Notes under the pieces: generated by a model | Databases searched by the model: none | Seen by the model: the letters and a program-made list of their open reading frames with translations, nothing else | Told to the model about the DNA's origin: nothing | Shown: in pieces, positions 590-49,227 of the stretch | Layout of the letters: each line of letters starts with the position of its first letter | Position numbering within the stretch: the first letter of the stretch is position 1 | Assembly: GCA_031555055.1 (NCBI GenBank) | Contig: JAVBUT010000002.1 | Location: forward strand, 210,165 to 274,164 | Source of the DNA: Alphaproteobacteria bacterium | GTDB taxonomy: Bacteria; Pseudomonadota; Alphaproteobacteria; Rs-D84 | Length of the DNA stretch: 64,000 bases | Direction of reading: 5' to 3' | Made by a program: the position numbers and the translations under genes

Positions 590-1240
590 TTATTTTGATA
601 AAACCAAGTATTTTGGTGTGGCGGTACCAGCCATATTTTTTTTCTGATACCGGGTTTTTATAATTTCTGATTCCTGATTTCTGATTCCTAGCTTACTGTT
701 TTTAACCTGATCCATGATCCAGTCATAGTATTCATGATGATCTGTGCCAATTATAATGACGCCGTCATCCGTCAGACGCGTCGCCAACAGGTTTAAAAAT
801 TCTGTATTTAACAGTCGGCGCTTTTCATGTCGTGCCTTGGGCCATGGGTCAGGGTGCAGAATCCATATTTTATCGAATCGCATATCGATAAAATCCGGCG
901 ATTCGGATTGAAGGATTTTTCGCACATCGTCCGGCCAGATATACAGGCTTTTATATTCAGGCTTAACCGTATTGTCCGATTCGTTTGTTATCGCAGACAA
1001 TAAAGATGCCACACCGTTCATAAACGGTTCGGCACCGATGATAATCGAATCGGGGTTGGACAATGCCAGGCTGCGCACATGTTCGCCCGCGCCAAAACCG
1101 ATTTCCAAAATATTTTTCCCGGCCTTTTTGATCATTTTTGGCGAAACGGCCGGTAAAATGTTATCGGTCAAAAATTGCTGACGCGCGGAAATCCGTTTTC
1201 CATGCCTCCGCCCGAAAGTTCTTATTTCTTGTTTTTGCAT
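590..1240 (-). CDS. trmB: tRNA (guanine46-N7)-methyltransferase TrmB
   Basis: Motifs GFGAGEHV (SAM binding) and ILHPDPWPK...RRL typical of TrmB. ATG at 1238-1240. The track ORF extends further upstream but the conserved N-terminus starts at MQKQEIRTFGRR. Contains an in-frame GAATCAG-type heptamer triplet at 664-690. Confidence 0.85.
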   Translation of the reverse strand: MQKQEIRTFGRRHGKRISARQQFLTDNILPAVSPKMIKKAGKNILEIGFGAGEHVRSLALSNPDSIIIGAEPFMNGVASLLSAITNESDNTVKPEYKSLYIWPDDVRKILQSESPDFIDMRFDKIWILHPDPWPKARHEKRRLLNTEFLNLLATRLTDDGVIIIGTDHHEYYDWIMDQVKNSKLGIRNQESEIIKTRYQKKNMAGTATPKYLVLSK

Positions 1241-1794: not shown

Positions 1795-3411
1795 ATGCGT
1801 AATGGCTTATCATCAGATTTAATTGCGCGCATATTGGGCGTGGCGCCAAAGTACACGATTGCGGAACTGGAACAAAAATTCCCGCCGCGCAATCTGCCGG
1901 ACGGCGCCATGGTGACCCGTGCGGCGCCCAGCCCAACTGGATTTATGCATTTAGGGAATTTGTACAGCATGCTGATTGATAAAAAGCTGGCCCAGCAATC
2001 GCACGGCGTTTTTATGCTGCGTATCGAAGATACCGATACGGATCGTGAAATCCCCGGTGCGGTCGATACGATTTTGGACATTGTTGAAAAGTTTAGGCTG
2101 GATATAGACGAAGGTGTTTTAAAAACCGGATTGGAAAAAGGCGCGTATGGGCCGTACACGCAATCACAACGCAAGGAAATTTATCATTCTGTGGCCGCCG
2201 AACTGTTGGCGACAGGCCGCGCGTATCCGTGCTTTTTGACATCGGATGAAATGAATGAAATTCGTGAAACACAAACCAAGGCCGGCATGCCGACCGGAAT
2301 TTATGGCGAATTCGCACGTGACCGGGATATGATGCCGGATGAAATTATTGCAAAAATTGATGCGGGCGTGGTGCCGTCGGTTCGTCTGTATTCGACAGGT
2401 GATCCATCCAAAAAGATTTTTTGCAAGGATGTTGCGCGCGGCTCAATCGCATTCCCGGAAAACAACGACGACGTGGTTTTAATAAAATCAAATGACGGAT
2501 TGCCGACATATCATTTTGCGCACTTGGTTGATGATCATTTTATGCGTACGACGAACGTTGTTCGCGGTGGGGAATGGTTGGCCTCGCTGCCGCTGCATAT
2601 TCAGATGTTCAATATGATGGGCTGGGCCGCGCCGGCGTATTCGCATACGGCGACAATTGACAAAATAGATGATGAGACAGGCAAACAGCGCAAATTATCC
2701 AAGCGCAAAGACCCCGAATCCAGCGTCGCGAACTTTATAACCGAAGGCTGGCCGATAGAGGCCGTATTGGAATACCTGTTCAATCTGGTGGCCAGCGGGT
2801 ATGAAGAAGAAAAAGTTAAAAATCCGTTGATGACCATTTGGGATTATGATTTAAAGTTAAAAAAATTATCGACCAGCGGTGCTTTGTTTGACTGGAAAAA
2901 GCTGGAATGGTGGGGAAAAGAATTTATTGCGACACTGCCGGTGTATGATCTGGTCAATCGCGTAATGGAATGGGTGCACGAATATTCGCCCCAGTGGCAT
3001 GAACGAATCGGGGACAAGATTGATTATCTGACCAAAATTTTGGCGATCGAACGCGATAATCCGAAACGTGTCCGCAAGGACTTTGTCACATGGAAGCAGA
3101 CATTGGAAGAAGTTGCATATTTCTTTGATGATATTTTTGAAAAATCAGAAATCGGAAATCAAAAATCAGAAATTAATAAAAATGCGCTGGATGCATTCCT
3201 GCGCGGGTTTGAATGGACTGACGACAAAGACACATGGTGGAATAAAATTGTAAAAATAGCGTCCGACATTGGTACTAAAAACGGCGATGTCGCGATGAGT
3301 TTGCGCGTCGCGTTAACCGGGCGCACAAACACACCCGATCTTTATTCGATCATGCAGGTCATGGGCGGTGAAAGGGTGATAAAACGCATAGGCAAAATTA
3401 TCAATGGTTAA
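1795..3411 (+). CDS. gltX: glutamate--tRNA ligase (class I, GluRS/GlnRS family)
   Basis: HIGH-type motif PSPTGFMHLGN and KMSKS-type motif KLSKRK. RBS AAGGAAAG upstream. In-frame heptamer insert at 3141-3177 encodes EKSEIGNQKSEI. Confidence 0.85.
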   Translation: MRNGLSSDLIARILGVAPKYTIAELEQKFPPRNLPDGAMVTRAAPSPTGFMHLGNLYSMLIDKKLAQQSHGVFMLRIEDTDTDREIPGAVDTILDIVEKFRLDIDEGVLKTGLEKGAYGPYTQSQRKEIYHSVAAELLATGRAYPCFLTSDEMNEIRETQTKAGMPTGIYGEFARDRDMMPDEIIAKIDAGVVPSVRLYSTGDPSKKIFCKDVARGSIAFPENNDDVVLIKSNDGLPTYHFAHLVDDHFMRTTNVVRGGEWLASLPLHIQMFNMMGWAAPAYSHTATIDKIDDETGKQRKLSKRKDPESSVANFITEGWPIEAVLEYLFNLVASGYEEEKVKNPLMTIWDYDLKLKKLSTSGALFDWKKLEWWGKEFIATLPVYDLVNRVMEWVHEYSPQWHERIGDKIDYLTKILAIERDNPKRVRKDFVTWKQTLEEVAYFFDDIFEKSEIGNQKSEINKNALDAFLRGFEWTDDKDTWWNKIVKIASDIGTKNGDVAMSLRVALTGRTNTPDLYSIMQVMGGERVIKRIGKIING

Positions 3412-7017: not shown

Positions 7018-7161
7018 ATGAAAATGAATAAATTAACTTTATTGTTCGCATTGTTTGCGGTATTGACTGTTGCGGGTTGCTGTAACTGTGAAAAAGAGCC
7101 GATTGTGGAACAAAATCACAAGCTGATCGTTCCGCCGAACTTTGGCAACCAACCAAAGTAA
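7018..7161 (+). CDS. small putative lipoprotein (47 aa, lipobox LTVAGC)
   Basis: Sequence MKMNKLTLLFALFAVLTVAGCCNCEK... preceded by GAAAGGAAATG. Below the ORF-track size cutoff. Confidence 0.4.
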   Translation: MKMNKLTLLFALFAVLTVAGCCNCEKEPIVEQNHKLIVPPNFGNQPK

Positions 7162-7164
7162 ATA

Positions 7165-7274
7165 CTAGCGTATAGCAAATAGCGAATAGTGTGTATCGCT
7201 TAGCTGTTTTTTTGATTGAATCTATGTGCTAATCACTATTCACTATACACTATATGCTATTTGCTATGTGCTAG
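7165..7274. repeat. family-A palindromic element (tagcNNatagc-type arms); imperfect inverted repeat
   Basis: ctagcgtatagcaaatagcgaatagtgtgtat versus the reverse complement of ctaatcactattcactatacactatatgctatttgctatgtgctag. Related copies at 13.47 kb and 45.85 kb. Confidence 0.6.
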
Positions 7275-7316
7275 TTTTTATGTTATAATTAATCCATGAA
7301 GTAATGGAGAGATGTT

Positions 7317-8027: not shown

Positions 8028-8033
8028 AAAAAC

Positions 8034-8104
8034 GTGATTCGTGACTCGTGAATCGTAACTCGTCACGATAACCGCGAATCACGAATTACAAATCACGAGT
8101 TACA
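8034..8104. repeat. heptamer array: 4-5 copies of GTGAnTC followed by 4 inverted copies GAnTCAC, just upstream of tatA; four GANTC sites
   Basis: gtgattc gtgactc gtgaatc gtaactc gtcacga ... gaatcac gaattac aaatcac gagttac. 7-bp periodicity with an inverted-repeat centre. Confidence 0.6.
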
Positions 8105-8126
8105 AAGCGACCATAGGGAGCGTATT

Positions 8127-9597: not shown

Positions 9598-10767
9598 ATG
9601 ACAAAAAACATATATATGGACGCCGCCGCCAGCAGCCTGAAACCACAGTCTGTGATTGATGCGGAAATGGATTTTTTACAAAATCGTTATGCAAACGCCG
9701 GGCGTGGAATATGCGCGCGTGCATCCGCGGTTGACAATATGGTGGCGAATACCCGTGACGCGGTCCGTGATTTTATTGGCGCGTCAAAATCCGACCAAAT
9801 TATTTTTACATCCGGCACCACGGACGGGATGAATAAAATCGCCAAAATGTTAAAAACTTCGTTATCGTTTGACGACAATTCTTTGGTTATGGTGTCCGAT
9901 CTGGATCATCACAGCGCGCGCATGCCGTTTGAAGAAATGCGCCATGGTGCCGGACGTAATTTTGCTGTATGTCCATTGGACAAAGAATTTAACATTGATA
10001 CTGAAAATATCCCGGCCGCCGACGTATTCGTTATTACCGCTATGTCAAACGTGCTGGGGGCGCCCCAGGATGTAAAAAAAATTATATCTGCGGCCCGTGC
10101 AAAAAATCCAGACGTTATAACGGTTGTCGACGCCGCACAATATGTTGCGTATTTGCCAATTGACGTTGCCGATTGGGATTGTGACTTTTTATGTTTTTCC
10201 GGGCACAAGATCGGCGCGGATACAGGTGTTGGTATAATGTATATAAAAGAGCCGAAAAAATGGTTCCCGGCGGAACTTGGTGGGGGCATGGTGTCGCGAA
10301 TAACAGGATCGGACGGATCAAACGACAGCCGATGGATTTTTATGTCCGCACCAGAAAAATTCGAAGCGGGCACATTGCCGCTGACCCAGATCGCGGGGTT
10401 GGTTTCGGCGATAAGGAATCAGGAATCAGGAATCCGCCTCCGCAGATGCTTCGGCGGACAAGTCAGGGATCAGGGATCGAGAATTGTGAGGTATCTGCAT
10501 GATGAGTTGTCAAAAATTGATCGTATAAAAATAATTACCAAACCAGATGCGGCGGTTTTGACATTCGTGGTCGACGGTATGCATGTGCTGGATTTTGGGG
10601 CTTTGGTGGGTGCGTCGGGCGTATGTATCCGCGTTGGAAACATGTGTGCGTCATGGATACATCGTTTATTGGGACAAGACGGCACGATACGGATATCTTG
10701 TGGATTCTGGAACACAATGGATGAAGCAAACGATGTTATTGATATAATAAAAAAGATATTGAAATGA
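9598..10767 (+). CDS. sufS: cysteine desulfurase, class V aminotransferase (SufS/NifS-like)
   Basis: PLP-lysine motif SGHK, TSGTT and class-V pattern. Followed by DUF59 and SufE genes. Carries a composite repeat insert at 10415-10483. Confidence 0.8.
   Translation: MTKNIYMDAAASSLKPQSVIDAEMDFLQNRYANAGRGICARASAVDNMVANTRDAVRDFIGASKSDQIIFTSGTTDGMNKIAKMLKTSLSFDDNSLVMVSDLDHHSARMPFEEMRHGAGRNFAVCPLDKEFNIDTENIPAADVFVITAMSNVLGAPQDVKKIISAARAKNPDVITVVDAAQYVAYLPIDVADWDCDFLCFSGHKIGADTGVGIMYIKEPKKWFPAELGGGMVSRITGSDGSNDSRWIFMSAPEKFEAGTLPLTQIAGLVSAIRNQESGIRLRRCFGGQVRDQGSRIVRYLHDELSKIDRIKIITKPDAAVLTFVVDGMHVLDFGALVGASGVCIRVGNMCASWIHRLLGQDGTIRISCGFWNTMDEANDVIDIIKKILK
10415..10483. repeat. composite GAATCAG-heptamer/core element inserted in-frame in sufS; same core as the miaB copy
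   Basis: ggaatcaggaatcaggaatcc-gcctccgcagatgcttcggcggacaagtcagg-gatcagggatcgag. The reverse complement occurs at 26836-26896. Confidence 0.75.
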
Positions 10768-11836: not shown

Positions 11837-13471
11837 ATGTTTGAAGTAGGAAGGGATATTTTAAAAGGTGGCTTTAAATCCGCGGGCGCGGATGTTGCGT
11901 CACGTGGTCGACTGCGCATTGTATATTCTTTGTTTGTCATCGCATTTTCCATTTTTATTGTGAAAACATTGTGGTTGGGGGTCCAGGGCACAGACCGCGC
12001 ACGCCGCGGCACCGGGGCGGGCGACTGGGTGGTTACGCGCGCCGACATCGTTGACCGAAACGGCGATATTCTGGCCAAAAACATAATGTCCGGGCATATT
12101 ACGCTACGTCCACAACTGGTCAAGGATCGCGATGCTGTCGCAAGATTGATACATCAGACTATGCCAATGGAATACAGTCTGTCGGACGCGCTGGGGATGA
12201 TGAATTCGTCCAGACGATTCATTTATGTTAAAAAGCTGGCCGATGATTCCGCACGCAACGCCGTGGCAAACGCAAAACTGGCGGGATTGGACATAGAGCA
12301 GGTTCAAATGCGTCGTTATCCAAAGCGCCGGCTGTTCTCGCACATTGTCGGATTTGTCGGAAATGACGGACATGGGTTGGAAGGCGCGGAAAGAATATAC
12401 GATAGCTATCTGTCTGAAAATAAAGACCCGTTGCGGCTGTCGCTGGATTCGCGTATACAGTCCGTGTTTTACGAACAGCTGTCCGCGGCAATGCACAAAT
12501 ACCAGGCGAATGCCGCAATGGGCATGCTGATGAACTCACGCACGGGGGAAATGTTGGCGATTGTATCTTTGCCGGACTTTGATCCGGAAAATATTGCGTC
12601 GTCGACAACAGCCAGCCGTATGTTCATGCCATTGCGCGGCGTATTCGAAATGGGGTCCATATTCAAGATATTCAACACTGCCATGGCGTTCGAAAACGGG
12701 ATAAATAAAAAATACTTTGTTGGTACGCCGTACAAGATACCGGACAAATTCGGACGCACGGCTGCGATCATCGGCGATGTCAGCAGTTTGAAAAAAGTCA
12801 CCGACGTGACACCGAATATGTCTGTTCCGGAAATTATGCTGTATTCATGCAACGCGGGGTCTGCCCAGATTGCGTTGGATTTGCCGGACGGGGCCCAGCG
12901 CGAATTCTTTTCACGAATTCATTTGGACGATGCGTTGGATTTGGAATTTGGCCGGACCGAGCGTACATTGTTGCCGATCAAATGGGGACCGGTGGAAAGG
13001 GCGACAGTATCTTTTGGTCACGGTGTATCTGTAACGCCGATGCACGTGATGCTGGGGGTGAACGCTATGACAAACGGCGGGATATTCATATATCCGACGT
13101 TGCAAAAGCGCAGCATTGGTGCCGTCCGCGGCGAACGTGTGGTGTCACCGGACATATCTGCGACATTGCGCGGGATAATGTTCCGCGTCGCAGAAGAAAC
13201 GACCGCGAAACAGGCCAGAATCGCCGGCATTAACATTGGTGGGAAAACATCGACTGCGGAAAAAAGAATAAACGGCGTGATCGATCATAAAAAGAATCTG
13301 ACAGCATTCGTTGGGGCATTTCCGATAGAGGCGCCACAATACACCATACTGATTGTTCTGGACGAACCAAAGGGAACCCAGGAATCATACGGTCTGCGCA
13401 CGGCTGCGTGGAATGCGGTTCCGACCGCCGGCAAGATACTGGACAGCGTGTTGCCAATGCTGTTTGATTAA
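11837..13471 (+). CDS. ftsI: peptidoglycan D,D-transpeptidase FtsI (PBP3)
   Basis: GSIFK (SxxK), YSCN (SxN) and KTST (KTG-like) motifs. N-terminal TM segment. Confidence 0.8.
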   Translation: MFEVGRDILKGGFKSAGADVASRGRLRIVYSLFVIAFSIFIVKTLWLGVQGTDRARRGTGAGDWVVTRADIVDRNGDILAKNIMSGHITLRPQLVKDRDAVARLIHQTMPMEYSLSDALGMMNSSRRFIYVKKLADDSARNAVANAKLAGLDIEQVQMRRYPKRRLFSHIVGFVGNDGHGLEGAERIYDSYLSENKDPLRLSLDSRIQSVFYEQLSAAMHKYQANAAMGMLMNSRTGEMLAIVSLPDFDPENIASSTTASRMFMPLRGVFEMGSIFKIFNTAMAFENGINKKYFVGTPYKIPDKFGRTAAIIGDVSSLKKVTDVTPNMSVPEIMLYSCNAGSAQIALDLPDGAQREFFSRIHLDDALDLEFGRTERTLLPIKWGPVERATVSFGHGVSVTPMHVMLGVNAMTNGGIFIYPTLQKRSIGAVRGERVVSPDISATLRGIMFRVAEETTAKQARIAGINIGGKTSTAEKRINGVIDHKKNLTAFVGAFPIEAPQYTILIVLDEPKGTQESYGLRTAAWNAVPTAGKILDSVLPMLFD

Positions 13472-13766
13472 CCATTAGCGCATAACAAATAGCGTATAGC
13501 GATTAGCAAATAGTTACAGGTGCGAACATTTTGTCGTCATACCGGCGACTTGTCCACCGAAGCCTTGGCGAAGGTCGGAGCGCCTGTATAACGACCAGTG
13601 TGAAATATTTTTATTTTTTACAAAATACCGAATTCGGGTTATTTAAAACACAAATTTTGGAACAGAATATAATAAATAGGAAACGTTTCTTTTGTAATAA
13701 AAGAGGCTTATTCCATAGAAGATGCTATGCGCTAATCGCTATACGCTATTTGCTATGCGCTAATGG
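13472..13766. mobile_element. MITE-like element: about 43-bp near-perfect terminal inverted repeats (family A, tagc-rich) flanking about 210 bp of non-coding sequence
   Basis: ccattagcgcataacaaatagcgtatagcgattagcaaatag at 13472-13514 versus the reverse complement of gctatgcgctaatcgctatacgctatttgctatgcgctaatgg at 13724-13766. The internal ORF 13531-13770 is judged spurious. Confidence 0.65.
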
Positions 13767-13840
13767 TTAATGACTATTAACTATTTGCTATTGATCATTT
13801 AATTGCTATAATAATTCCGATAAGAAAAAAAGAGATTACG

Positions 13841-15607
13841 TTGAGAAAGATAGTAGAAAGATCCATGCTGGGCAAAGCGTGGGTTTGCGCGACAGAGTAT
13901 GAAGAAAACACGCCCAGCAGTACGATTTTAAAAGAAGACTTGTTAAAGAAAATATTGGAATCGCGCGGCGTTCGTAGCGGGGTCGATACCAGCAAGTTTT
14001 TAAATCCCAGCATAAAAGAATACATGCCCGACCCCAGCGTGCTGGCCGATATGGATTCGGCGGCGCGTATAATTGTCGACAATATTGTCGCCGGGCGGAA
14101 AATTGCCATATACGGCGACTATGACGTGGACGGAATAACGTCCAGTGCGATCATGGTGAAATATCTGCGTGCGGTTGGCGCAAACGTCGTATGGCACCTG
14201 CCAACGCGCGAAGGCGAAGGGTATGGTCTGAACTGTGATGCCGTCAGTGCGATCGCCGCGGACGGGGTCAATCTGATCGTGACCGTCGATTGCGGAATCA
14301 GCGGCGTGGAAGAAATTGCGCTGGCTAAAAAACTGGGGCTGGATGTCGTTGTTACCGATCATCATTCGCCTGACGGGAATCTGCCGGCGGCCGACGCGGT
14401 CGTGAATCCCAAACGCCTGGACGATACGTCCGGGATGTCTTATCTGGCGGGTGTCGGCGTGGCTTTTATGACACTGGTCGCCGTGAATAGAGAACTGAAG
14501 TCCAGAAATGACGATAAATTCCAAATTCCGCATTCTTTATTTTTGATCGATCTGATGGATTTGGTCGCGCTGGGGACGATATGCGACACAATGCCGTTGG
14601 TGGGACTGAATCGTGCGTTTGCTGCGACCGGCCTGAAAGTTCTGGCCAAGCGAAACAATGTCGGCCTGCGCGCGTTGATGGATATTGCAGTAATTAAATA
14701 GCAGACCAAATACAGCGTGATGTTCGCGCTGGGGCCGCGGTTGAATGCGGCGGGCCGTCTGGATTCTGCGGCGCCGGCGCTGGAACTGTTGTTGACGGAC
14801 AATATACTGGTCGCGAACGATCTGGCGGCAAAATTAAACCGCATGAACCAGGAACGCATAGATGTTCAAAATGCAATCATGATAAGTGCGACCGAAATGG
14901 CCCAGAAATGTTGCGCTTTGGGAAAATGCAGCCTGTTCGTATGTGGCGATAACTGGCGCACTGGGGTTATGGGGATCATCGCCGGGCGGCTGAAAGACAA
15001 ATATAACCTGCCGACATGTGTTGCGACGAAATGCGACGGCGTGATTGACGGGTCCGGCCGTTCTATACCGGGCGTCGATCTGGGGCGCATTGTCCATGAT
15101 GCGGCGGCATTGGGAATAATCAGCGGCGGCGGCGGCCATGCGGCGGCGGCCGGGTTTACTTTGCCGGCAGAGAATGAACAGAAATTCTGCGAATTTTTGG
15201 AAAAATCCGTCTTGGCGCAGTTGGATGGGAAAATTCCGGAAAACGAAACGGTTGTTGATGCCGAAATGGATGCCGGTGGCGCAACGATGAAGCTGGTGGA
15301 ACAACTGGCGGAACTGGAACCGTTCGGCCAGGCCAATCCGGAACCGACACTGGTACTGCGTGGCGGGACATTGGCCCACGCGACGATAATGGGCAAGGGC
15401 GGAACGCACTTGCGCGGATATATCAATACAGGCAACGGATCGCGCCTGGCGTTTGTGGGATTTAATATGGTCGGGACGCCGGTCGGTGATTTTTTGCTGG
15501 ACGATGCGCATACAAATACTAAAATGATGATGTTGGGAAAGTTAAAGGAAAACGAATACCAAGGCCGCGTATCGGCACAGTTCATTTTGGAAGACTTGGC
15601 AATTTAA
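13841..15607 (+). pseudogene. recJ: recJ single-stranded-DNA exonuclease interrupted by an in-frame TAG at 14699-14701 (two ORFs 13841-14701 and 14717-15607 in the same frame)
   Basis: DHH motifs (YGDYDVDG, DHH) in the first part. Conserved FALGPRLNAAGRL and DHHA1 region in the second part. The frames are identical and separated by a single amber codon. Confidence 0.6.
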
Positions 15608-15637
15608 TGAAGAATGAAAAGTGAAAAATGAAAAATT
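15606..15637. repeat. ATGAAAA-type heptamer array immediately after the recJ stop
   Basis: aatgaagaatgaaaagtgaaaaatgaaaaatt. Confidence 0.55.
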
Positions 15638-15685
15638 AAATTCATTTTGACTTAATGGTTTTTCAAAATAAAAAAAGGAACAGAT

Positions 15686-16312
15686 ATGAAATTTTTTTTA
15701 AAGTCATTATTCATTGTTAGTTTTTCATTTTTTATTCCGACATTTGCGTATGCGTCGGTTGACAAGGCTTTGGTGGATTCGGCTGAAACTTATCTGAATT
15801 CTATCACCGGGCTGAACGGAAAATTTACACAGAATGCGAACGGCAAGAAAAGCAATGGGACATTCGACATGCTGCGCCCGGGCAAAGTTCGCCTGGATTA
15901 CAAAGACATGCCGGTACAGTTGATATCGGACGGTCAGGATTTGTATTTCTTTGACAAGTCGCTGGACCAGATCACGACCGTGCCGCTGACCAGTACGCCG
16001 GCCGGGATATTGGTACGCAAGAACATCAATTTACGCAATGCGGATATCAAGGTAACCGAAACAAAACAGAATGCCAAGACTTTCGCGCTGACCATGCATA
16101 TGCGCGATAATGAAGGTGTCGGCAAAATGACTGTCGTATTCGACAATGCGCCGATAAAGCTGAATTCATGGACGGTGTCGGACGCCACAGGGACCAAGAC
16201 GGATGTGGTATTCAACGATCTGAAAACAAAAACCGATTTTGCAAAAAACTATTTCCAGATACAGCGTCACAAGACTGCGACTACATCCGGCGGCGACAGC
16301 TATTATGATTAA
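15686..16312 (+). CDS. lolA: outer-membrane lipoprotein carrier protein LolA
   Basis: Signal peptide plus LolA pattern F.Q.......G.....RPG..R..Y......SDG..LY.FD..L.Q.T. Confidence 0.7.
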   Translation: MKFFLKSLFIVSFSFFIPTFAYASVDKALVDSAETYLNSITGLNGKFTQNANGKKSNGTFDMLRPGKVRLDYKDMPVQLISDGQDLYFFDKSLDQITTVPLTSTPAGILVRKNINLRNADIKVTETKQNAKTFALTMHMRDNEGVGKMTVVFDNAPIKLNSWTVSDATGTKTDVVFNDLKTKTDFAKNYFQIQRHKTATTSGGDSYYD

Positions 16313-18321: not shown

Positions 18322-19680
18322 ATGAAAAAAAATATTCGGCGATTTTTTATTGCTGTTTCTATCTTATTAAATTTGTCCGCATGTGACCTGCAGCCAAAGA
18401 TTACCGCACTGCCGGATACGGTCGGTGACTTTATATCCACGCGGTATCCGGCATTGCTGGCGGATCCGACAACCCAGCCAGAAATATACGATTCCGCTGC
18501 GACCGATTACGGCGTTTATGCGTCTCCGGAACTGTACGGCACATCCGGTGAATCCAGCATGGATGATTATCTGATGTACGCCAGTGTGGACGATTACACA
18601 TTGCGGCCGCAACAGACCCAGGTTGTCCGGGTTCCGATTATCGAAACAAAATCCGGTCAGACGGTTATTGTCAGCACCCCCAGCCCAATGGACGATTATC
18701 TGATGGTGCCCGCGTACGAGCATGTTGTTCACGACACGGTCGAGGTAATTGTATCCAAAGGCGACACTCTGTATTCCATATCCAAGAAATATTCGACCAC
18801 GGTTGGCGAATTGGCGACGATGAATAAATTGTCCGCGCCATACGCGTTGTCGGTTGGCCAAAAGATAAAAGTTCCGGTGCTGAAGACTGTCCCGGTGATA
18901 GAGCCGGCACCGATCGTCACCGCCGCGCCGATCATGGCGACACCGGTCAAGGCAGAAGTAGTAGAAGTGACCGTTACCAAGGGCGACACATTGTATTCCA
19001 TGTCGCGCAAATATGCTTTGCCGGTCAATGATCTGGCGGTTATGAATAAATTAAAACCACCGTTTACGCTGTCTGTTGGTCAGAAATTAAAAGTGCCAAA
19101 AATAACGGATGTTGCAATGCCGGACAAGACAATCGTGCCGGTGCGAACCACGACTGTGCCGACATCGCCAATTGTCGCGGCATCGCCGACACCGGTGCCG
19201 AAAACGGTAACACCGATACCGGTCAGACCGATTGCAACGCCGGCGCCGGCAAAGGTATCCAGCGCGCCGACCGCGCCATTGCCTAAAATAACATCGCGGT
19301 CATCGTCAAAGTTTTCCTGGCCGGTGCGCGGAACGATATTGTCCGGATATGGCGCAAAATCGACAGGCTTGTTCAACGACGGAATCAATATCGCGGCCAG
19401 TGCCGGCACCAAGGTCGGTGCGGCTGAAAACGGCGTCGTCGCATATGCGGGCAATGAACTGAAAGGTATGGGTAACCTGGTAATCGTCCAGCATTCAGAC
19501 GGCTGGATGACAGTCTATGCGCATATGGACCAGATGTCCGTGCGACGCGGCGTCAAGGTTACCGTGGGTCAGAAAATCGGAACTGTCGGCAAGACCGGCA
19601 AGGTTGACCGTCCGCAACTGCACTTTGAAATCCGCAAGGGAACCAAGGCGTACGATCCGAATGCATATTTAAAGAAATAA
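18322..19680 (+). CDS. nlpD: NlpD-like lipoprotein with two LysM domains and a C-terminal M23 peptidase domain
   Basis: Lipobox LSAC. Two LysM repeats (VSKGDTLYSISKKY...GQKIKVP). C-terminal M23 fold (AYAGNELKGMGNLVIVQH...HFEIRKG). Confidence 0.8.
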   Translation: MKKNIRRFFIAVSILLNLSACDLQPKITALPDTVGDFISTRYPALLADPTTQPEIYDSAATDYGVYASPELYGTSGESSMDDYLMYASVDDYTLRPQQTQVVRVPIIETKSGQTVIVSTPSPMDDYLMVPAYEHVVHDTVEVIVSKGDTLYSISKKYSTTVGELATMNKLSAPYALSVGQKIKVPVLKTVPVIEPAPIVTAAPIMATPVKAEVVEVTVTKGDTLYSMSRKYALPVNDLAVMNKLKPPFTLSVGQKLKVPKITDVAMPDKTIVPVRTTTVPTSPIVAASPTPVPKTVTPIPVRPIATPAPAKVSSAPTAPLPKITSRSSSKFSWPVRGTILSGYGAKSTGLFNDGINIAASAGTKVGAAENGVVAYAGNELKGMGNLVIVQHSDGWMTVYAHMDQMSVRRGVKVTVGQKIGTVGKTGKVDRPQLHFEIRKGTKAYDPNAYLKK

Positions 19681-19800
19681 AATTAAAGACAATGGCACAT
19701 CTGGTGACGGGGCCGGTGGCTTATGTATGTTTAATACACAACGCCATCGGCCTCGCCATCATCTGCACCATTCTTTTTAATTTTAAACAGCAGAGTTTAA
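19681..19800 (+). repeat. family-C stop-codon-adjacent element, diverged copy, directly 3 prime of nlpD
   Basis: taaaattaaagacaatggcacatctgg...ggtggcttatgtatgtttaatacacaacgccatc...cattctttttaattttaaacagc. Homologous to 42437-42565 and 63758-63885. Confidence 0.6.
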
Positions 19801-21145: not shown

Positions 21146-21180
21146 TTATGGTGGTGGGGGATATTACACAATTATCGAAC
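21146..21180. repeat. att-like direct repeat R1 (hairpin + ttatggtgg...attatcgaac); copy of R2 at 21781
   Basis: ttatggtggtgggggatattacacaattatcgaac preceded by hairpin aaatgcccgcaaggggcat. Same architecture as the tRNA-Lys 3 prime end plus terminator at 23050-23085. Confidence 0.5.
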
Positions 21181-21269
21181 TTCGCCAAAAGGCTTCGTAC
21201 GACAAGTCGAACTAATTTCCCAAGAAAATTTCTTGGTTTGGTTCATAAAATCAGATAATTTAAAAAAAA

Positions 21270-24600: not shown

Positions 24601-26163
24601 ATGAGAAATTTAGTCGTATTTTTATTAATGATGACCGTGGGCTTTGGCGCGCCGGCCAATCAGCCGGTTTATATCGATTCGATTATCGTCGGAAAAAATC
24701 TGGATATATTCGATAACACCGTTATAACAAAACAATCAATAGTTGATGTGGATCGTGTAAATATTATAGACACCGTATATTTGGATAACCGTGGCAATAT
24801 TTATGGCGATATTTTTATCCGGGACGGATATATGCTGACACTGCGCAACAGCGGTATGATTTCCGGGGCTGTGCATACCGGTGAAAATTCGCATCTGGTC
24901 CAGGTGATAAAAACACAGAACGACATTACACAGCTTAATGCGCCTGATTCCGGTTTTTCAATATTGGTGCAGAATAAAGAGCCGCTAAAACTGTCCGACA
25001 TTATCGGGATATCTGTCGGTGCGGATCGGATAGTCTTGGACGGTGCATCCATATTTATTTCGCCGGCGCCGATCGCCAAGACATTGCGCGCAACGGCGGA
25101 ACCGAATATAGAACTGGTCGGCGAAACAATTGTTAAAATCCCAAATGCCAAAAACATGGATGGCAAAATGATCCTGTCAAATGTATCCGGCGATGGCGTG
25201 ATTCTGGTACAGGATACAGGCCTGGGGCCTTTGTACGCGGCGACGGCGGTTCGTCGTGAAGACGGGATATATCTGCATGTTGCGCGCGAAACAGATTATG
25301 GCAAAATACTGGGCGCGGGGCGTGGCGCATTTATAGATAAATTGCGTAATATTGATCCGGAAAATAAAACGATATTGGCGCTGGATCGTGCGGCCGATAT
25401 GAATGAATTTCAAAGATTCGCCGCGTCATCCGCCTTGCTGAATCCGATAAATTTGATACGTCCGGTGAAAATATTTAACAAGTTCGAAACATCCGGATTT
25501 TTATCCATGGACGAAGTATCCGGATTGGAACCAATTTGTATAACATCCGACTGGTTGGATTTGTACGCCGCGAAATTACGCGCAGCTTTTAATATCGATA
25601 ATTTCAATATCGCTGTGAACGCCTATGCCGGCGGTTTTGATTCCAATACCGATCTGGATAGTTTTTCAGGTAATTTTTACGGTGGAAATATTGATTTTAT
25701 ATTTTCATACAAATCCTTGTGGATAGACTCTGGTCTGGGGTTCACGGTATCAAGATTTGAAACTGGCGCAATATTTGACGGTAATGATTTCGTATATGAT
25801 CCCAGCGGGATTTCAATTTACGGCGTGGCGGATATCGGGTACAGGTTTGATTTAAATAATGATTTTTATGTATCGCCGTTTGTCGGTTTTGGCGCGGAAT
25901 ATGATTCTGTTTTGTATCAAGACGACACATCGGTATTTGCGCGCGCGGGCGCATATGCCGGATACTCATTCAATGAAATCGGAATCAAATACGATTATCA
26001 TATTTTTGCAATGGCGCAAACGGACGAAACGGTCATGACCGGAATTAGAATGAGTTTCTGGTCTGTCGTCGACCGCATGGGCGGCGATATTTCGTATGCA
26101 ATATCAGATGACGAAGTTGGGATTTCGCATAAATTTTCTGCCGGAATCAGATTTATGTTTTAA
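24601..26163 (+). CDS. outer-membrane protein with autotransporter-like C-terminal beta-barrel domain
   Basis: Signal peptide. C-terminal about 250 aa show alternating aromatic/hydrophobic beta-strand pattern ending in the terminal F (SAGIRFMF). Confidence 0.5.
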   Translation: MRNLVVFLLMMTVGFGAPANQPVYIDSIIVGKNLDIFDNTVITKQSIVDVDRVNIIDTVYLDNRGNIYGDIFIRDGYMLTLRNSGMISGAVHTGENSHLVQVIKTQNDITQLNAPDSGFSILVQNKEPLKLSDIIGISVGADRIVLDGASIFISPAPIAKTLRATAEPNIELVGETIVKIPNAKNMDGKMILSNVSGDGVILVQDTGLGPLYAATAVRREDGIYLHVARETDYGKILGAGRGAFIDKLRNIDPENKTILALDRAADMNEFQRFAASSALLNPINLIRPVKIFNKFETSGFLSMDEVSGLEPICITSDWLDLYAAKLRAAFNIDNFNIAVNAYAGGFDSNTDLDSFSGNFYGGNIDFIFSYKSLWIDSGLGFTVSRFETGAIFDGNDFVYDPSGISIYGVADIGYRFDLNNDFYVSPFVGFGAEYDSVLYQDDTSVFARAGAYAGYSFNEIGIKYDYHIFAMAQTDETVMTGIRMSFWSVVDRMGGDISYAISDDEVGISHKFSAGIRFMF

Positions 26164-27575
26164 ACAATCTCCCCGCGCAGTGACGATTTATTAGCAGCAG
26201 TGATTTTAATGTTTTGCAGGGGCGAATCATTAGTGTCGCAACACGCGCTTACGACCACCTGCTGCATATACGGGGTACGAAATATCAGATTATTTCCGGT
26301 TTTGTCGGGTCCTTCGGTCAGACATTCAAAAGTTTTTCCAACGCATGATTCGTTAAATTCGCGCTGCAGATCGTTCAGGTATCCGTCCAGAATTTTCAGA
26401 CGTTCGCGTTTTTCCGGTTCAGAAATCTGATCCTTCATCAGTGCCGCCGCGGTATGGGGGCGGGGCGAATATTTGAACGAATAAGAATTTATATAACGAA
26501 CGCGTTTTGCGATTTCCATGGTTTTTGCGAAATCCGCGTCCGTCTCGCCAGGGAATCCGACGATAAAGTCCGACGATATTTGGATGTCCGGCCGCGCCGC
26601 GCGCAAACGGTCCACAATATCAATATACAGTTCCAAAGAATAAGGCCTGTTCATGCGGGTCAGAACATTCTGTGATCCGCTTTGGATCGGCAGGTTTAAA
26701 AACGGCAGTAATTTTGGTTCCGTCCGGAACAGGTCGATCAGATCATCTGTCATCTCGGTCGGATAGCTGGAAGTGAATCTTATGCGCTGTATCTGGGGCA
26801 GGGTGGCGGTTTCTTTGATAAGATCGGATAATGTACTGATTTCTGATTCCTGACTTGTCCGCCGAAGCATCTGCGGAGGTGGATTCCTAATTCCTTTATA
26901 CCCGTTCACATTTTGCCCCAGGAAACAAATTTCGATCGCGCCGGTTTCGGCGGCATGGCGGACATCGCGCATAACGCCATCGAATGGTCGCGACAGTTCT
27001 GGTCCGCGCGTGTATGGCACGATACAGTACGTGCAGACGTGGTTACAGCCTTCTTGGATCGGGATATATGCGATGGCCGGCGATGATGACATTTGGGGCA
27101 ACTCGTCGAATTTTTCAAGCCCACCAAGATCGACGTTTAATAAACGTGTGTCCGGATTGTCGATAATTTCCGGCAATTTGTGATAACTCTGTGGTCCCAA
27201 GACAAAATTTAATTCTGGTATTCTGCGGAATGCGTCGGCGCCGCTTTCGCGTGCGACACATCCGACAATGCCAAACAGCGCGTCCGGCTTTTTTGCCAAA
27301 CGGATTCGCCCCAGTGCACTGAACACTTTATTGGTCGCTTTTTCGCGCACGGAACAAGTGTTCAGAATAATCAGATCGGCATTCACGATTTCTGATGTTT
27401 CCGTCCAGCCGCGTTGTATTAACATGCTTGCGATACGCTGGCCGTCATAGACGTTCATCGCACAACCAAAGGTTTGGATGTGGAACAAATTCCCCGCCTG
27501 GGGCGGGGTGCCGTCGCCGTTATGCGTGGCGGGGTGGGTTAAAGAATTCGAAATATCCAATTTGTTTTTTTTCAT
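26160..27575 (-). CDS. miaB: tRNA-2-methylthio-N6-dimethylallyladenosine synthase MiaB (radical SAM)
   Basis: MTTase N-domain FHIQTFGCAMN, radical-SAM CNHVCTYC and TRAM domain. In-frame composite repeat at 26836-26896 encodes GIRNPPPQMLRRTSQESEI. Confidence 0.85.
   Translation of the reverse strand: MKKNKLDISNSLTHPATHNGDGTPPQAGNLFHIQTFGCAMNVYDGQRIASMLIQRGWTETSEIVNADLIILNTCSVREKATNKVFSALGRIRLAKKPDALFGIVGCVARESGADAFRRIPELNFVLGPQSYHKLPEIIDNPDTRLLNVDLGGLEKFDELPQMSSSPAIAYIPIQEGCNHVCTYCIVPYTRGPELSRPFDGVMRDVRHAAETGAIEICFLGQNVNGYKGIRNPPPQMLRRTSQESEISTLSDLIKETATLPQIQRIRFTSSYPTEMTDDLIDLFRTEPKLLPFLNLPIQSGSQNVLTRMNRPYSLELYIDIVDRLRAARPDIQISSDFIVGFPGETDADFAKTMEIAKRVRYINSYSFKYSPRPHTAAALMKDQISEPEKRERLKILDGYLNDLQREFNESCVGKTFECLTEGPDKTGNNLIFRTPYMQQVVVSACCDTNDSPLQNIKITAANKSSLRGEIV
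26836..26896. repeat. composite GAATCAG-heptamer/core element inserted in-frame in miaB (reverse orientation of the sufS copy)
   Basis: ctgatttctgattcctgacttgtccgccgaagcatctgcggaggtggattcctaattcc. The core matches 10426-10462 with 1 mismatch. Confidence 0.75.
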
Positions 27576-30613: not shown

Positions 30614-30689
30614 GGCTGGGTAGCTCAGTTGGTAGAGCAAGGGACTGAAAATCCCTGTGTCGGCGGTTCGATTCCGTCCCCAGCCACCA
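30614..30689 (+). tRNA. tRNA-Phe (anticodon GAA)
   Basis: GGCTGGG acceptor, TAGCTCAGTTGGTAGAGC D-arm, anticodon loop CTGAAAA, GGTTCGATTCC T-arm, CCA encoded. Confidence 0.9.
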
Positions 30690-30892
30690 GATTATAACAA
30701 AATGTTCCGTAAGGGACATTTTTTTATAATCTTTGTTGTTTTGTACCATTAAACCGCCCACAGGGATTTGAAGGTACTGAATCCGAGCGTATAAGCACAC
30801 AAAAATTTTCGTTGTTAGAAAATTTTTGATGTGCGCATAGTCGAGGATACGCGGCTCACTTGATAAATATTTACACTTGGGACCAAGCGAGC

Positions 30893-30935
30893 GAAAATCC
30901 CTGTGTCGGCGGTTCGATTCCGTCCCCAGCCACCA
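30893..30935 (+). repeat. direct duplicate of the 3 prime 43 nt of tRNA-Phe (anticodon loop to CCA); att-site remnant
   Basis: gaaaatccctgtgtcggcggttcgattccgtccccagccacca is identical to 30647-30689. Confidence 0.8.
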
Positions 30936-31019
30936 CAAATTTTCGTTATATTTTTGCAAGGCAAAAATTTTAAGAAAATTTAGTGCCCCACGAAGCCTTG
31001 GCGAAGTGGGGCTTTTTGT

Positions 31020-32865: not shown

Positions 32866-33345
32866 ATGATTTTGGCAGATTTCAAGGATTTTCCCCGACA
32901 GGGTCGGGTTATTGGAATAGACTGGGGCGCGCGACGTATCGGCGTCGCGGTGTCTGACGAATCTCGCGAATTTGTGTTCACGCGGGACGTGATAACAATC
33001 AGGAATCGGGAATCCACCGTTGCCAAGGCTTTGGCGGACAAGCCAGGAATCGGTGAAATTATAAAATTGGTAAAATCCGAAAAAATCGTCGGGATAATAA
33101 TCGGCTTGCCGGTGCATGCCGACGGGACGGACTCGGCGACGACAAAAATGGTTCGCGAATTCGCGGACGAATTGTCCGGTCAGACGGATTTGCCGGTCGT
33201 ATTTATCGAAGAGAATTTAACATCGGTCGCCGCAGCGGAGAGGAGTCAGGAGTCAGGAATCAGGAACAAGAATTTTTCGATTGATTCAGAGTCTGCGAAA
33301 ATAATACTGGAAAACGCAATCGCGATGATACGACGAATGGGATAG
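32866..33345 (+). CDS. ruvX: YqgF/RuvC-like Holliday-junction resolvase / pre-16S rRNA nuclease
   Basis: Motifs GIDWGARRIGVAVSD and IIGLP. Two in-frame heptamer triplet inserts at 32996-33017 and 33239-33267. Confidence 0.75.
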   Translation: MILADFKDFPRQGRVIGIDWGARRIGVAVSDESREFVFTRDVITIRNRESTVAKALADKPGIGEIIKLVKSEKIVGIIIGLPVHADGTDSATTKMVREFADELSGQTDLPVVFIEENLTSVAAAERSQESGIRNKNFSIDSESAKIILENAIAMIRRMG

Positions 33346-37798: not shown

Positions 37799-37809
37799 AG
37801 CTGATTCCT

Positions 37810-39150
37810 TTAAACTGATTCCTGGTTACTTAATGCCATTTTTATAAGTTGTTTGGATTCCACCAAAAATTCCATCGGCAGGCGCGATATGATCGGCGCC
37901 GCCAGGCCGCCTATGATCAGTGCGGTCGCTTCGTCTTCGGGAATGCCACCCTGTGCCAGATAGAGCAGGGCCGCCGCGTCGATCGCGCCGGTCTTGGCTT
38001 CGTGGCTTTGATCGTTTTCGCCATTGTTGTGAACGATTGTCGGCAGTGTGTTCGCAACCGCCGTATCGCCGATAATTCGGCTGTCGCACTTTGACGCGTT
38101 CATGCCGCGAATGCCATTAAACTGAACACGTGATCGGAATGTCTGGACTGATTCTTCCAGTGCGACACCGTATGACACGATATTCGATACTGTGTCGTCG
38201 CCGATATGAATCATTTTTGTGCCGGTATCGGCCTGTTGATTTCCGCGCGTTATTGTTAGTGAGTAAAAGTCGCTATGTGCATGGTTTCCGCGCAAAATTG
38301 TGGATGGATATTTCCATGTCATGGCACTGCCAACTTCTACCTGGGTCCAATATACTTTTGCATTTTCATGTGCGATTGCGCGCTTGGTGACAAAGTTCAG
38401 GATACCGCCACGCTGCGCGCCGTGATTCGAATATTCTCCGGCGTACCAATTCTGAACTGTGGCGTATTTTACGATTGCGTTGTCCAGTGCGATGACTTCG
38501 ACGACGCCACTGTGCAGCTGGTGGTTTGGTCTGCGCGGTGCGCTGCACCCTTCGAGATAAGATAATTCCGCGCCGGTGTCTGCCACGATCAATGTGCGTT
38601 CAAATTGTCCGATCTTGGCGGTTTCGATTCTGAAATAGCTGGCCAGATCAATCGGGCATTTTGTGTTTTTCGGAATATAAACAAATGTGCCGTCGGAAAA
38701 CACCGCCGCGTTCAGTGCTGCGAAAAAGTTATCAGAGGCCCCCACAACAGTGCCCAGATATTTTTTTACCATGTCGGGATGCTTTTCGACCGCTTCGGAA
38801 AAAGGCAGAAAAATTATCCCCAACTTTTCCAATTCCGCAGTGTACGACGTATGTACGGATCGGCTGTCGATCACGGTGTCTGTCGCCATTCCCATCAGTG
38901 CGCGCTGTTCGCTTTCGGGCAGACCCATTTTTTCGTATGTTTTTTTCAGATCGGAATTGTCGATCAGTGCGGGCTCTTTATAATAATTCAAAGAATCATA
39001 ATCGATCGGATCGTAATTTATTTTTGCCCAATGTGGCTCTTTCATTTTTGACCAGGCGTCAAACGCGGCCAGACGCCATTCGGTCAGCCACGATGGCTCT
39101 TTACGTTTTTTAGAAATATCACGAATAAGATCAGCGTTTAGCTTTTTCAT
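37810..39150 (-). CDS. sufB: Fe-S cluster assembly protein SufB
   Basis: SufB/SufD beta-helix family with SufB-specific LEGCSAP motif. 446 aa. No sufD follows. Confidence 0.8.
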   Translation of the reverse strand: MKKLNADLIRDISKKRKEPSWLTEWRLAAFDAWSKMKEPHWAKINYDPIDYDSLNYYKEPALIDNSDLKKTYEKMGLPESEQRALMGMATDTVIDSRSVHTSYTAELEKLGIIFLPFSEAVEKHPDMVKKYLGTVVGASDNFFAALNAAVFSDGTFVYIPKNTKCPIDLASYFRIETAKIGQFERTLIVADTGAELSYLEGCSAPRRPNHQLHSGVVEVIALDNAIVKYATVQNWYAGEYSNHGAQRGGILNFVTKRAIAHENAKVYWTQVEVGSAMTWKYPSTILRGNHAHSDFYSLTITRGNQQADTGTKMIHIGDDTVSNIVSYGVALEESVQTFRSRVQFNGIRGMNASKCDSRIIGDTAVANTLPTIVHNNGENDQSHEAKTGAIDAAALLYLAQGGIPEDEATALIIGGLAAPIISRLPMEFLVESKQLIKMALSNQESV

Positions 39151-40739: not shown

Positions 40740-40743
40740 ATTA

Positions 40744-40773
40744 AATGAAAAATGAAAAATGAAAAGTGAAAAA
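40744..40773. repeat. ATGAAAA-type heptamer array between the TcpQ-like gene and the secretin gene
   Basis: aatgaaaaatgaaaaatgaaaagtgaaaaa. Confidence 0.55.
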
Positions 40774-40828
40774 TAATTCCTTGGTCATTGCATTTTTCCA
40801 AAGACTTGAAACACATAGGTGAGAGAAT

Positions 40829-42565: not shown

Positions 42566-42570
42566 AATTT

Positions 42571-42620: not shown

Positions 42621-42635
42621 TTTTATAGTCTGGTT

Positions 42636-45816: not shown

Positions 45817-45845
45817 AAAATCCCGCGATGCGGGATTTTTTAACA

Positions 45846-48598: not shown

Positions 48599-49227
48599 TG
48601 GGTAGCGCGACCTTGTCCCAAGGTCGCACGTGACAACCTTGGGACAAGGTTGTCCTACCATTTTCAAGTTAAATGAAAAAATGCAAAACGATGATATATT
48701 TTTCAGAAAGAAATTAGATCATGAAATTCCATATTGGGTTAAGTCGGATTCAATATTTTTTATAACAATAAATACATTGCCACGTGGAAAAAATAATCTT
48801 GCGACTTTTAATATTTCGAAAATAATTAGAGATAGTCTGCGATTTTATCAATCAAAAGGTTTGATATATGTTGAATATTTACTGCTGATGCCGGATCATT
48901 TGCATATGCTGGTCGCATTTAATGATATCCCTATGGAAAAATTTATACAACAATGGAAAAAATATATTTCCAGAAATACAAAGGTTGAATGGCAGCGTGA
49001 TTTTTTTGATCATCGGATACGAAATGGCGAATCTTTGCAAGAAAAAATAGATTATATATCAAATAATCCAGTTCGTAAAAATTTTGTGGTTAATTCGTTT
49101 GATTGGAAGTATCAGTGGTTGAGAGGGATGCATGAATTATCAGATTTTGATTTAGGATCATAATTAGGCATGACCGGTTTGTCCCAAACTGGTCATGTGC
49201 GACCTTGGGGACAAGGTCGCGCTACCC
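48599..49227 (+). mobile_element. REP-RAYT-REP unit: IS200/IS605-like HUH tyrosine transposase (RAYT) flanked by inverted pairs of REP hairpins
   Basis: Left gggtagcgcgaccttgtcccaaggtcgc + gacaaccttgggacaaggttgtc. Right catgaccggtttgtcccaaactggtcatg + gcgaccttggggacaaggtcgcgctaccc. The outermost arms are mutually inverted. Confidence 0.7.
48681..49163 (+). CDS. REP-associated tyrosine transposase (RAYT, IS200-like TnpA)
   Basis: HUH motif MPDHLHMLV. RAYT-type motif WQRDFFDHRIRN with downstream catalytic Tyr region (EKIDYISNNP). About 30% GC. Confidence 0.7.
   Translation: MQNDDIFFRKKLDHEIPYWVKSDSIFFITINTLPRGKNNLATFNISKIIRDSLRFYQSKGLIYVEYLLLMPDHLHMLVAFNDIPMEKFIQQWKKYISRNTKVEWQRDFFDHRIRNGESLQEKIDYISNNPVRKNFVVNSFDWKYQWLRGMHELSDFDLGS

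Follow-up and report, generated by a model that had tools for sequence, protein, structure and literature searches.

The 64-kb window analysed here (64,000 nucleotides, positions 210,165 to 274,164 of contig JAVBUT010000002.1, assembly GCA_031555055.1, from an uncultured alphaproteobacterium of the Rs-D84 lineage) carries a composite repeat of 58-72 nt, in which a 30-nt GC-rich palindromic core is nested in 7-nt tandem repeats, inside the genes for a SufS-type cysteine desulfurase, MiaB and RuvX. The insertions are lineage-specific, lie in length-variable loops of these three proteins, keep the reading frame of the host gene and are read in three different frames. We think it probable that they are selfish or neutral repeat DNA, made of two layers, which permissive loops tolerate and which is translated there.

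A preliminary description of this DNA had reported one and the same composite repeat of about 70 bp inside the SufS-like open reading frame (ORF) and inside miaB, and both copies are confirmed (Table 1): a 31-nt stretch, CCTCCGCAGATGCTTCGGCGGACAAGTCAGG, is present at 10437-10467 (+) and 26849-26879 (-) with 0 mismatches and has 0 matches across 100 dinucleotide shuffles, and the two copies are 91% identical over 58 nt, with unlike heptamers flanking the identical core stretch. The repeat is thus real, as described, but it consists of two separable layers that also occur alone: arrays without a core are found in the genes for TrmB, GltX, RuvX and SufB, and cores without these heptamers at 13547-13578 and in a related locus, L061. 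A third composite copy, in frame in ruvX/yqgF (32997-33056 (+), 78% identity), came from a repeat search and blastn, and a covariance model (R1) built from 20 core sequences gives the four window copies of the core 44-50 bits. Three of these four strong copies are within ORFs. The fourth one, whose wider limits are 13544-13580 (-), is intergenic: inverted TAGCGnA heptamer arrays (13467-13513 and 13725-13771) delimit an insert of ~305 nt around it, and the relative has just a 52-nt spacer at this place. The weak core relative 3' of gatA has the inner motif of the core with a different outer stem and is terminator-like. The covariance model found no core in the 37 kb of syntenic DNA of the closest relative.

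Table 1. Coordinates of the repeat copies, heptamer arrays and related features in the window
Feature	Position	Strand	Gene and reading	Score or remark
SufS-like ORF, intact	9598..10767	+	class-V aminotransferase / SufS-type cysteine desulfurase	Pfam Aminotran_5; E 1e-52 to PDB SufS chains
Copy 1, composite	10414-10485	+	SufS read-through ..RNQESGI RLRRCFGGQV RDQGSR..	72 nt = 24 codons
Copy 1, left array (AGGAATC)x3	10414..10434	+	SufS-like ORF, RNQESGI	Tandem Repeats Finder: period 7, 3.0 copies, 100% match
Copy 1, 30-nt core CGCCTCCGCAGATGCTTCGGCGGACAAGTC	10435..10464	+	RLRRCFGGQV	model R1: 49.9 bits, E 1.5e-11
Copy 1, right heptamers AGGGATC AGGGATC GAGAATT	10465..10485	+		last unit degenerate
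MiaB ORF, intact	26160..27575	-	MiaB	E 4e-75 to PDB 7mjz
Copy 2: AGGAATT AGGAATC, core, AGGAATC AGAAATC	26835..26895	-	miaB; read-through GIRN PPPQMLRRTS QESEIS	47.7 bits
Copy 2, core CACCTCCGCAGATGCTTCGGCGGACAAGTC (CACCTCC...ACAAGTC)	26881-26852	-	copy 2 read as GIRNPPPQMLRRTSQESEIS	
Copy 3: (AACAATC) AGGAATC GGGAATC, core, AGGAATC (GGTGAAA)	32994..33058	+	ruvX/yqgF; read-through IRNRE STVAKALADK PGIGE	45.7 bits
Copy 3, core CACCGTTGCCAAGGCTTTGGCGGACAAGCC	33015-33044	+	copy 3 read as IRNRESTVAKALADKPGIGE	
Copy 4, core only, without AGGAATC heptamers: CCGACCTTCGCCAAGGCTTCGGTGGACAAGTC	13547..13578	-	intergenic	blastn; 44.2 bits
Weak core relative GCCCCAC-TTCGCCAAGGCTTCG-TGGGGC	30984..31011	-	3' of gatA	20.2 bits, E 0.003
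Degenerate core-like copy TTCGCCAAAAGGCTTCGTACGACAAG	21173..21211	+	intergenic	17 bits, E 0.023; direct repeat TCGAAC on flanks
Peptides expected if the inserts are translated			NPPPQMLR, CFGGQVR, ALADKPGIGEIIK	
Core-less AGGAATC/AGAAATC array	663..689	-	trmB, GIRNQESE	sense
Core-less (GAAATCA)n array	3142..3173	+	gltX, KSEIGNQKSE	sense; net +4 aa
Core-less AGGAGTC/AGGAATC array	33241..33265	+	ruvX, RSQESGIR	net +3 aa vs relative
AGGAATC-type units	37800..37830	-	over sufB stop codon and sufC ribosome-binding region	SufB C-terminal ..NQESV extension
REP-associated tyrosine transposase (RAYT) gene	48630..49163	+	directly downstream of dnaA; 177 aa	Pfam Y1_Tnp
Second GTAG repeat family	8549, 8606, 53130, 62502	-		
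Second GTAG repeat family	42593, 53082, 54305, 62427	+		

Both host ORFs named in the preliminary description are uninterrupted and in frame through the repeat, as it had stated. The SufS-like ORF is followed by FeS_assembly_P and SufE homologues in the order seen in relatives. The copy in this ORF had been assigned to the other strand; all three genic copies are in fact sense to their host gene (miaB itself being on the minus strand), and only the frame differs. Together they use all three frames, the core being read as RLRRCFGGQV in SufS, PPPQMLRRTS in MiaB and STVAKALADK in RuvX, and therefore no particular peptide has been selected. The GC skew has one sign over the whole window, while the four cores point both ways; their orientation therefore tracks the host gene rather than replication, as selection against stop codons would lead one to expect.

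The lineage-specific loop insertion that had been supposed for the two enzymes is borne out by their orthologues. The MiaB insert is carried by 0 of the 119 other homologues (among the 120 closest, the window protein included), and its site holds YEQY in the closest homologue (82% identity), ~10 residues in most homologues and 20 element-encoded residues in the window. The SufS segment from QIAGL to YLH..EL measures 29 aa in 102 of 120 homologues vs 41 aa in the window. The closest relative, GCA_031554955.1, is syntenic over sufS..miaB; its MiaB and RuvX have no array at the corresponding sites, and the window RuvX exceeds that of the syntenic relative by 9 aa at copy 3 and by 3 aa at the core-less array. 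The element thus encodes 20-24 residues with a net gain over orthologues of 9-16 (SufS +12, MiaB +10 to +16, RuvX +9), so the earlier figure of about 23 added residues corresponds to what is encoded and overstates what is gained; a net gain of ~10 aa is about the core's 10 codons. On alignment to solved structures, the SufS insert maps away from the SGHK lysine, to a helical linker that follows the conserved GL..A motif; in the radical-SAM domain of MiaB, the insert maps to the variable loop that follows the LGQNVN strand. AlphaFold models built from input alignments of 11-12 sequences are poor (mean predicted local distance difference test score, pLDDT, 59 and 68) and were used only for the statement that the inserts are of low confidence (pLDDT <50), with a coil in MiaB. 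Apart from copy 2, miaB has a second window-specific insert of 27 codons right after Met-Lys-Lys (NKLDISNSLTHPATHNGDGTPPQAGNL, 27494-27574 (-)), which contains the hairpin CCCCGCC-cca-GGCGGGG; this 81-nt N-terminal insert is absent from all 119 other homologues, and no second copy of it was found in the sequences searched.

Is the SufS loop an unusual place for such an insert? In the closest relative (L021, 10812-10839) the loop holds its own (GCACAGA)4 array, and is thus not an empty site; in L062 (1179-1231) it holds (GCAGAGA)6, in L063 (1996-2130) an unrelated ~80-nt palindrome, and in L061 (listed at 1443-1547 and 1605-1673) a core-like hairpin, CCCGTCTTCGCCGCTTCGCGGCTATGCCGCGGCAAG, between two (AATTTCA)2 arrays. 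Elsewhere in its SufS gene L061 carries a naked 33-nt core in frame, IDG[PPSPDISGVTS]MHP. Independent inserts at one loop in four relatives argue for a structurally permissive site that filters frequent insertions. Other in-frame GC-rich hairpin inserts were seen in relatives: L062 (251-352) has a repetitive extragenic palindrome (REP) of CGTC/TGTC type, TGTCATTCCGGCGAAGGCCGGAAC, after the SufS start codon, read CRCHSGEGRN, and GC-rich hairpin inserts are present in GatC (HPDENQNPGHKK.., L023, 5902-6252) and in GltX (PALGGVDGAAGRGGF, L021, 3005-4639).

The heptamer layer obeys a simple coding rule. Three AGGAATC units make seven codons, and each sense frame is a stop-free cyclic permutation of the hydrophilic peptide GIRNQES, whereas antisense (AGGAATC)n has TGA in every frame; within genes, therefore, survival is possible only for sense arrays whose added length is divisible by three. 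AGGAATC-type arrays in or across ORFs are sense in 7 of 7 cases, and unit types with stops both ways (TTAGTCA, TAGCGnA) are intergenic only, often as inverted pairs around hairpins. Arrays with period 7 number 28 in the window, where shuffles give ≤1, and L061-L063 have 7-18 of them per 10 kb; such arrays, with many types of unit, are a clade-wide property.

Arrays of other units (CGTGAnT, TAGCGnA, AATGAAA, and AGGTTCG inside uvrC) are at 8033-8106, 7159-7287, 45841-45944, 50747-50989 and 56987-57010; many are inverted pairs around short centres, and there are 12 units at 50760-50842. In two signal peptides the hydrophobic core is encoded by a sense (TTTCATT)n array, those of LolA (SLFIVSFSFFI) and of a secretin (FIFNFSFFI), at 15606-15640 / 15704-15736 and 40743-40774 / 40851-40881, with an inverted (AATGAAA)n array shortly 5' of each start codon, so arranged that the ribosome-binding site and start of these genes could be sequestered in a long hairpin; the LolA signal peptide of the relative is unrelated.

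The core has the form TCCGCC, a 3x3 internal loop, GC..GC and GGCGGA, followed by an unpaired ACAAGYC tail. It adds 10 codons, is open in all six frames and stands exactly between heptamer units in copies 1-3 and in loci L049 and L061. The two-tier stem that we propose for it is 92.9% paired, vs 32-48% when the partners are slid. Heptamers on both sides of the core had been noted in the preliminary description and are indeed there; they are direct repeats, not inverted ones. The unpaired conserved positions (TTC/TTC and ACAAGYC) hint at recognition by a protein.

Does the core occur outside this lineage? A scan of a genome collection with one genome per species, by exact match to GCTTYGGCGGACAAGYCAGG, gave 20 loci (the window's genome is not among the matches), which is about the chance number for GC-rich genomes; 14 of the 20 share an extended consensus, CTTCCGCCTTCGCCAAGGCTTCGGCGGACAAGTCAGG, with the core consensus CCGCCTTCGCC..GGCTTCGGCGGACAAGTC, and are real relatives of the core. 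They come from Vicinamibacterales, Verrucomicrobiota, Phycisphaerae, Chitinophagaceae, Levyibacteriota, Rhodospirillales and Bradyrhizobium, the core consensus thus being met in metagenome-assembled genomes (MAGs) of several phyla. A metagenome scan with GGCGGACAAGYCAGGRATC gave 36 matches, 35 of them chance matches in unrelated coding DNA and one a true member, L049 (GC 0.64), in which AGGGATC, the core, and AGGGATC GGGGAGC AGGGATC run through a DUF1501 gene in sense orientation, keep its frame and are read ..SASAKATADKSGIGEQGSGS... In L001, a Chitinophagaceae MAG (298-480), the core is followed by AGGAATC, ~20 units of AGTAAGC and then (CAACCAC)n, so the association of hairpin and heptamers reaches beyond Alphaproteobacteria, and in L017, a Phycisphaerae MAG (368-490), two tandem cores are 77 nt apart. 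The core family therefore extends beyond the lineage of the window. A peptide search with the three frame translations concatenated scored nothing in two protein searches, the core sequence retrieved only primers in a full-text literature search, Rfam found two tRNAs and no family matching the element in the window, and PLSDB plasmids gave just 7 weak, partial matches to the core consensus. For the GC-rich loci, an attempt to read the core's genic surroundings from ORFs was dropped, the spurious ORFs being too many.

A possible means of insertion is encoded in the window itself. The RAYT gene is recognised by the NCBIfam equivalog NF047646 (87 bits, cut-off 80) and by PDB 4er8, E. coli TnpArep (E 6e-8), and is bordered on both sides by inverted GTAG REPs (48602-48658 and 49164-49225, in the flanks 48596-48660 and 49164-49228) of the form GGTAG-CGCGACCTTG-tcc-CAAGGTCGC and variants, as is classical for REPIN/RAYT systems. 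A second GTAG REP family, GTAG-GGGCGCA-tatt-TGCGCCC (GTAGGGGCG, GTAGGGGCGCAtattTGCGCCC), has eight copies in the window, with inverted doublets at 53082/53130 and 62427/62502; canonical CGTC-tagged REPs are absent from the window. The second-family copies in 62396-62544 and 42568-42635 are edged by (TTAGTCA)n, and the last unit, TTAGTAG, contains the GTAG tag, which suggests that heptamer arrays may grow out of REP heads. A palindromic MITE-like element (MITE standing for miniature inverted-repeat transposable element), ~105-110 nt long (AAATTAAATA..GGGGTGGCTTA..TACGCCACCCC..TTTAATTT), was also seen in four copies (459-567, 19680-19783, 42433-42542 and 63757-63866), each beginning at, or a few bases from, the stop codon of a plus-strand gene; in size it resembles the palindromic elements of Rickettsia discussed below, but it is intergenic.

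Selfish or neutral repeat DNA would have reached its present positions as follows. The core would have entered heptamer arrays that were already there or travelled with it, perhaps by a hairpin-specific single-strand DNA mechanism such as that of a Y1/RAYT-type transposase like the one at 48630-49163; purifying selection would then have left only in-frame, sense copies in tolerant loops, and the extra residues would have no function of their own.

Several observations weigh against this account. The arrays seem to overwrite native codons with little or no change of length (TrmB 0, RuvX +3, GltX +4 aa; the trmB array takes exactly as many codons as the relative's native KLVTDDVK), and such overwriting is not accounted for by a simple insertion model. 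The hairpin shows no covariation; it is conserved in sequence, its 3' half being fixed by the search pattern, and the folding energy of element or core, which the preliminary description had thought worth checking, is not significantly beyond that of shuffles (z +0.5 to -1.7). No pair of empty and filled sites was found at the nucleotide level, so the element boundaries are provisional, and a target-site duplication and the order array-then-core are conjectural. The core lacks GTAG, and its antisense strand has only GAC(C)TTGTCC in common with the RAYT REPs, so the link between core and RAYT is weak and mobilisation of the core by the transposase at 48630-49163 is a hypothesis only. Translation of the inserts is deduced from the kept frame, and copy number and ORF fraction are values for 64 kb of genome and 4-6 copies.

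A bolder proposal, which we put forward tentatively and regard as less likely than simple tolerated repeat DNA, is that the core represents a third, undescribed cross-phylum REP-like super-family beside GTAG and CGTC, 'ACAAG-tailed' and specifically AGGRATC-associated, with the consensus TCCGCC-TTC-GCC..GGC-TTC-GGCGGA-CAAGYC, and that in this clade the arrays are a mutational process still at work, overwriting coding sequence codon for codon, in loops of essential enzymes and in hydrophobic cores of signal peptides, so providing frame-neutral landing pads for hairpins.

We consider it unlikely that the whole composite (heptamers, core and heptamers) is one miniature mobile element that moves as a unit, even though AGGRATC and core are paired in three distant lineages (the window, L049 and L001), the unit next to the L001 core is AGGAATC where the neighbouring long array is AGTAAGC, and the relative's MiaB and RuvX lack arrays at the sites in question. 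Copies with an identical core differ in how many heptamers they have and in the heptamer sequence, each layer is found without the other (the cores at 13547-13578 and in the naked L061 insert, and the core-less arrays), and the flanks are direct repeats rather than terminal inverted ones.

A functional cis-acting signal is considerably less probable again, be it in the mRNA, where the hairpin and a Shine-Dalgarno-like AGGA would pause ribosomes or stabilise the message, or in the DNA as a protein-binding site. The unpaired positions (TTC/TTC loop and ACAAGYC tail) are kept across phyla, a related hairpin after gatA is terminator-like, and mRNA stability is known to be influenced by REPs, which also bind gyrase and integration host factor (PMC3733652), all of which would suit such a role. 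The host genes show no positional logic, with one loop each in three unrelated enzymes; the element is missing at the same sites in the closest relatives, folds no better than shuffles and matches no Rfam family.

It is very improbable that the heptamer arrays are contingency (phase-variation) tracts in which slippage by one unit would shift the frame and so turn the gene on or off. The unit length of 7 nt is indeed not divisible by 3, and the copy number of heptamer simple sequence repeats does vary between strains (PMC4692102); the hosts, however, are single-copy housekeeping genes (sufS, miaB, ruvX, trmB and gltX) that would be costly to switch off, and short (2-4 units), imperfect arrays suppress slippage.

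Slightly less credible still is the idea that the inserts are left untranslated, by ribosome bypass or RNA processing. Ribosome bypass is exemplified by the GC-rich 'byp' elements of yeast mitochondria and by T4 gene 60, and GC-rich, hairpin-capable mobile inserts in ORFs of a lower-GC genome do look byp-like. All genic copies are nevertheless in frame and stop-free (3 in the window, 2 in L061 and 1 in L049), orientations that would introduce stops are not seen, and such a pattern would be needless if the inserts were skipped. Least probable of all is an artefact, that is, an assembly chimera in what is a MAG, or a segment native to the protein families, given three diverged in-frame copies with different flanks, analogous inserts in independently assembled relatives and orthologues without the segments.

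Two further features of the window were noted. recJ (13841-15607) has an in-frame TAG at 14699-14701 where the relative has Lys (AVIK*QTKY vs AGIKKPTTY); recJ may be a pseudogene, or the TAG may be a sequencing error or a codon that is read through. The 3' 55 nt of the tRNA-Phe gene (30614-30689) recur 190 nt downstream (30881-30935) at 93% identity, in the manner of an att remnant left by an integrated element that is lost or very small.

If the window genes do carry tolerated and translated repeats, very small palindromic repeats colonise essential genes outside Rickettsia as well and are carried there as extra loop residues. The arrays give a rule for repeats that genes tolerate, namely that they are stop-free in every sense frame and adjustable in length to a multiple of three. 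The SufS loop, occupied independently in five related lineages, is a natural permissive site, which should help in engineering proteins and in interpreting indels in alignments; in annotation, segments of this kind should not be taken for lineage-specific functional motifs. Heptamer arrays and REP-like hairpins, linked within one RAYT-encoding genome, bring the origin of such arrays within experimental reach.

How does the element compare with known systems? Rickettsia palindromic elements (RPEs) measure some 100-150 bp, with a single conserved peptide encoded per family (Ogata et al. 2000, summarised in PMC10969869). Like them, the present element is a palindromic repeat that stands in frame in unrelated housekeeping genes of an alphaproteobacterium and leaves the host protein intact. 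Unlike them, it has a core of 30 nt and a composite length of 58-72 nt, uses three frames where an RPE family keeps a fixed one, has direct 7-nt tandem repeats on its flanks, and has a core that recurs outside Rickettsiales. The suggestion in the preliminary description, RPE behaviour in a different repeat family, thus holds for the in-frame, lineage-specific insertion but not for size and coding habit.

REPs are the second obvious comparison. Di Nocera et al. 2013 (PMC3733652) describe 20-40-bp REPs of the GTAG and CGTC super-families that are shared across phyla, some of them intragenic and encoding 20-30 aa, and RPE-4 and RPE-6 are themselves CGTC REPs; since intragenic REPs are already described, the behaviour seen here is less exceptional than the preliminary description implied. 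Likenesses to these REPs include a GC-rich imperfect palindrome of 20-40 bp, a short unpaired tail, spread across phyla, some genic copies and a RAYT in the genome. The core has no GTAG tag, and its antisense cTTGTC followed by CGCC is a TGTC variant adjoining the stem; CGTC-1 to CGTC-4 have A/T at the first two stem positions, an 8-9-bp stem and a 4-5-nt loop, which the core lacks, having a 3x3 internal loop instead. GTAG and CGTC REPs are also predominantly extragenic, usually just 3' of ORFs, whereas 3 of the 4 strong copies here are genic and the core is nested in heptamer arrays. The gene of a cognate RAYT has that same REP on its flanks; the REPs flanking the RAYT here differ from the core, and the core was not found in the supplement of PMC3733652. 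The core thus fits the REP picture of Di Nocera et al. in part, that is, in size, phylum spread and behaviour, and not in defining tags or stem geometry. As in the REPIN/RAYT systems (Bertels & Rainey 2011, PMC3116915), the window combines a single-copy RAYT with inverted GTAG REPs and a dispersed REP family; unlike a REPIN, the element has one core per site with no inverted REP doublet, and its flanks are direct heptamers.

Unlike a MITE, the element has no terminal inverted repeats. The heptamers to either side of the core (AGGAATC in copy 2, AGGGATC in L049 and AATTTCA in L061) may be a 7-bp duplication or simply adjacent array units. In architecture the closest match is reportedly found in cyanobacteria: Elhai and colleagues are said to have described, in 2008 (Genome Res, cited in PMC5861425), hairpins of 21-27 nt (small dispersed repeats, families SDR1-8) set in arrays of heptameric short tandemly repeated repetitive sequences, in Nostocaceae only. 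The likeness is one of architecture, a hairpin unit within tandem heptamers, and the hosts differ, being cyanobacteria there and an alphaproteobacterium here. The heptamers themselves resemble those described by Rehm et al. 2015 (PMC4692102), (GGGAATC)n in Xanthomonas, where they fill intergenic regions, and GGGGAYT in Nostoc, with 2-26 units, frequent inverted pairs and unknown origin. GGGAATC is nearly AGGAATC and is itself present in copy 3; the arrays here differ in being short, A-containing and preferentially genic in sense orientation. The element is, in sum, an intragenic REP-like hairpin with sense-only heptamer arrays, and its behaviour is of a kind already known for RPEs and intragenic REPs.

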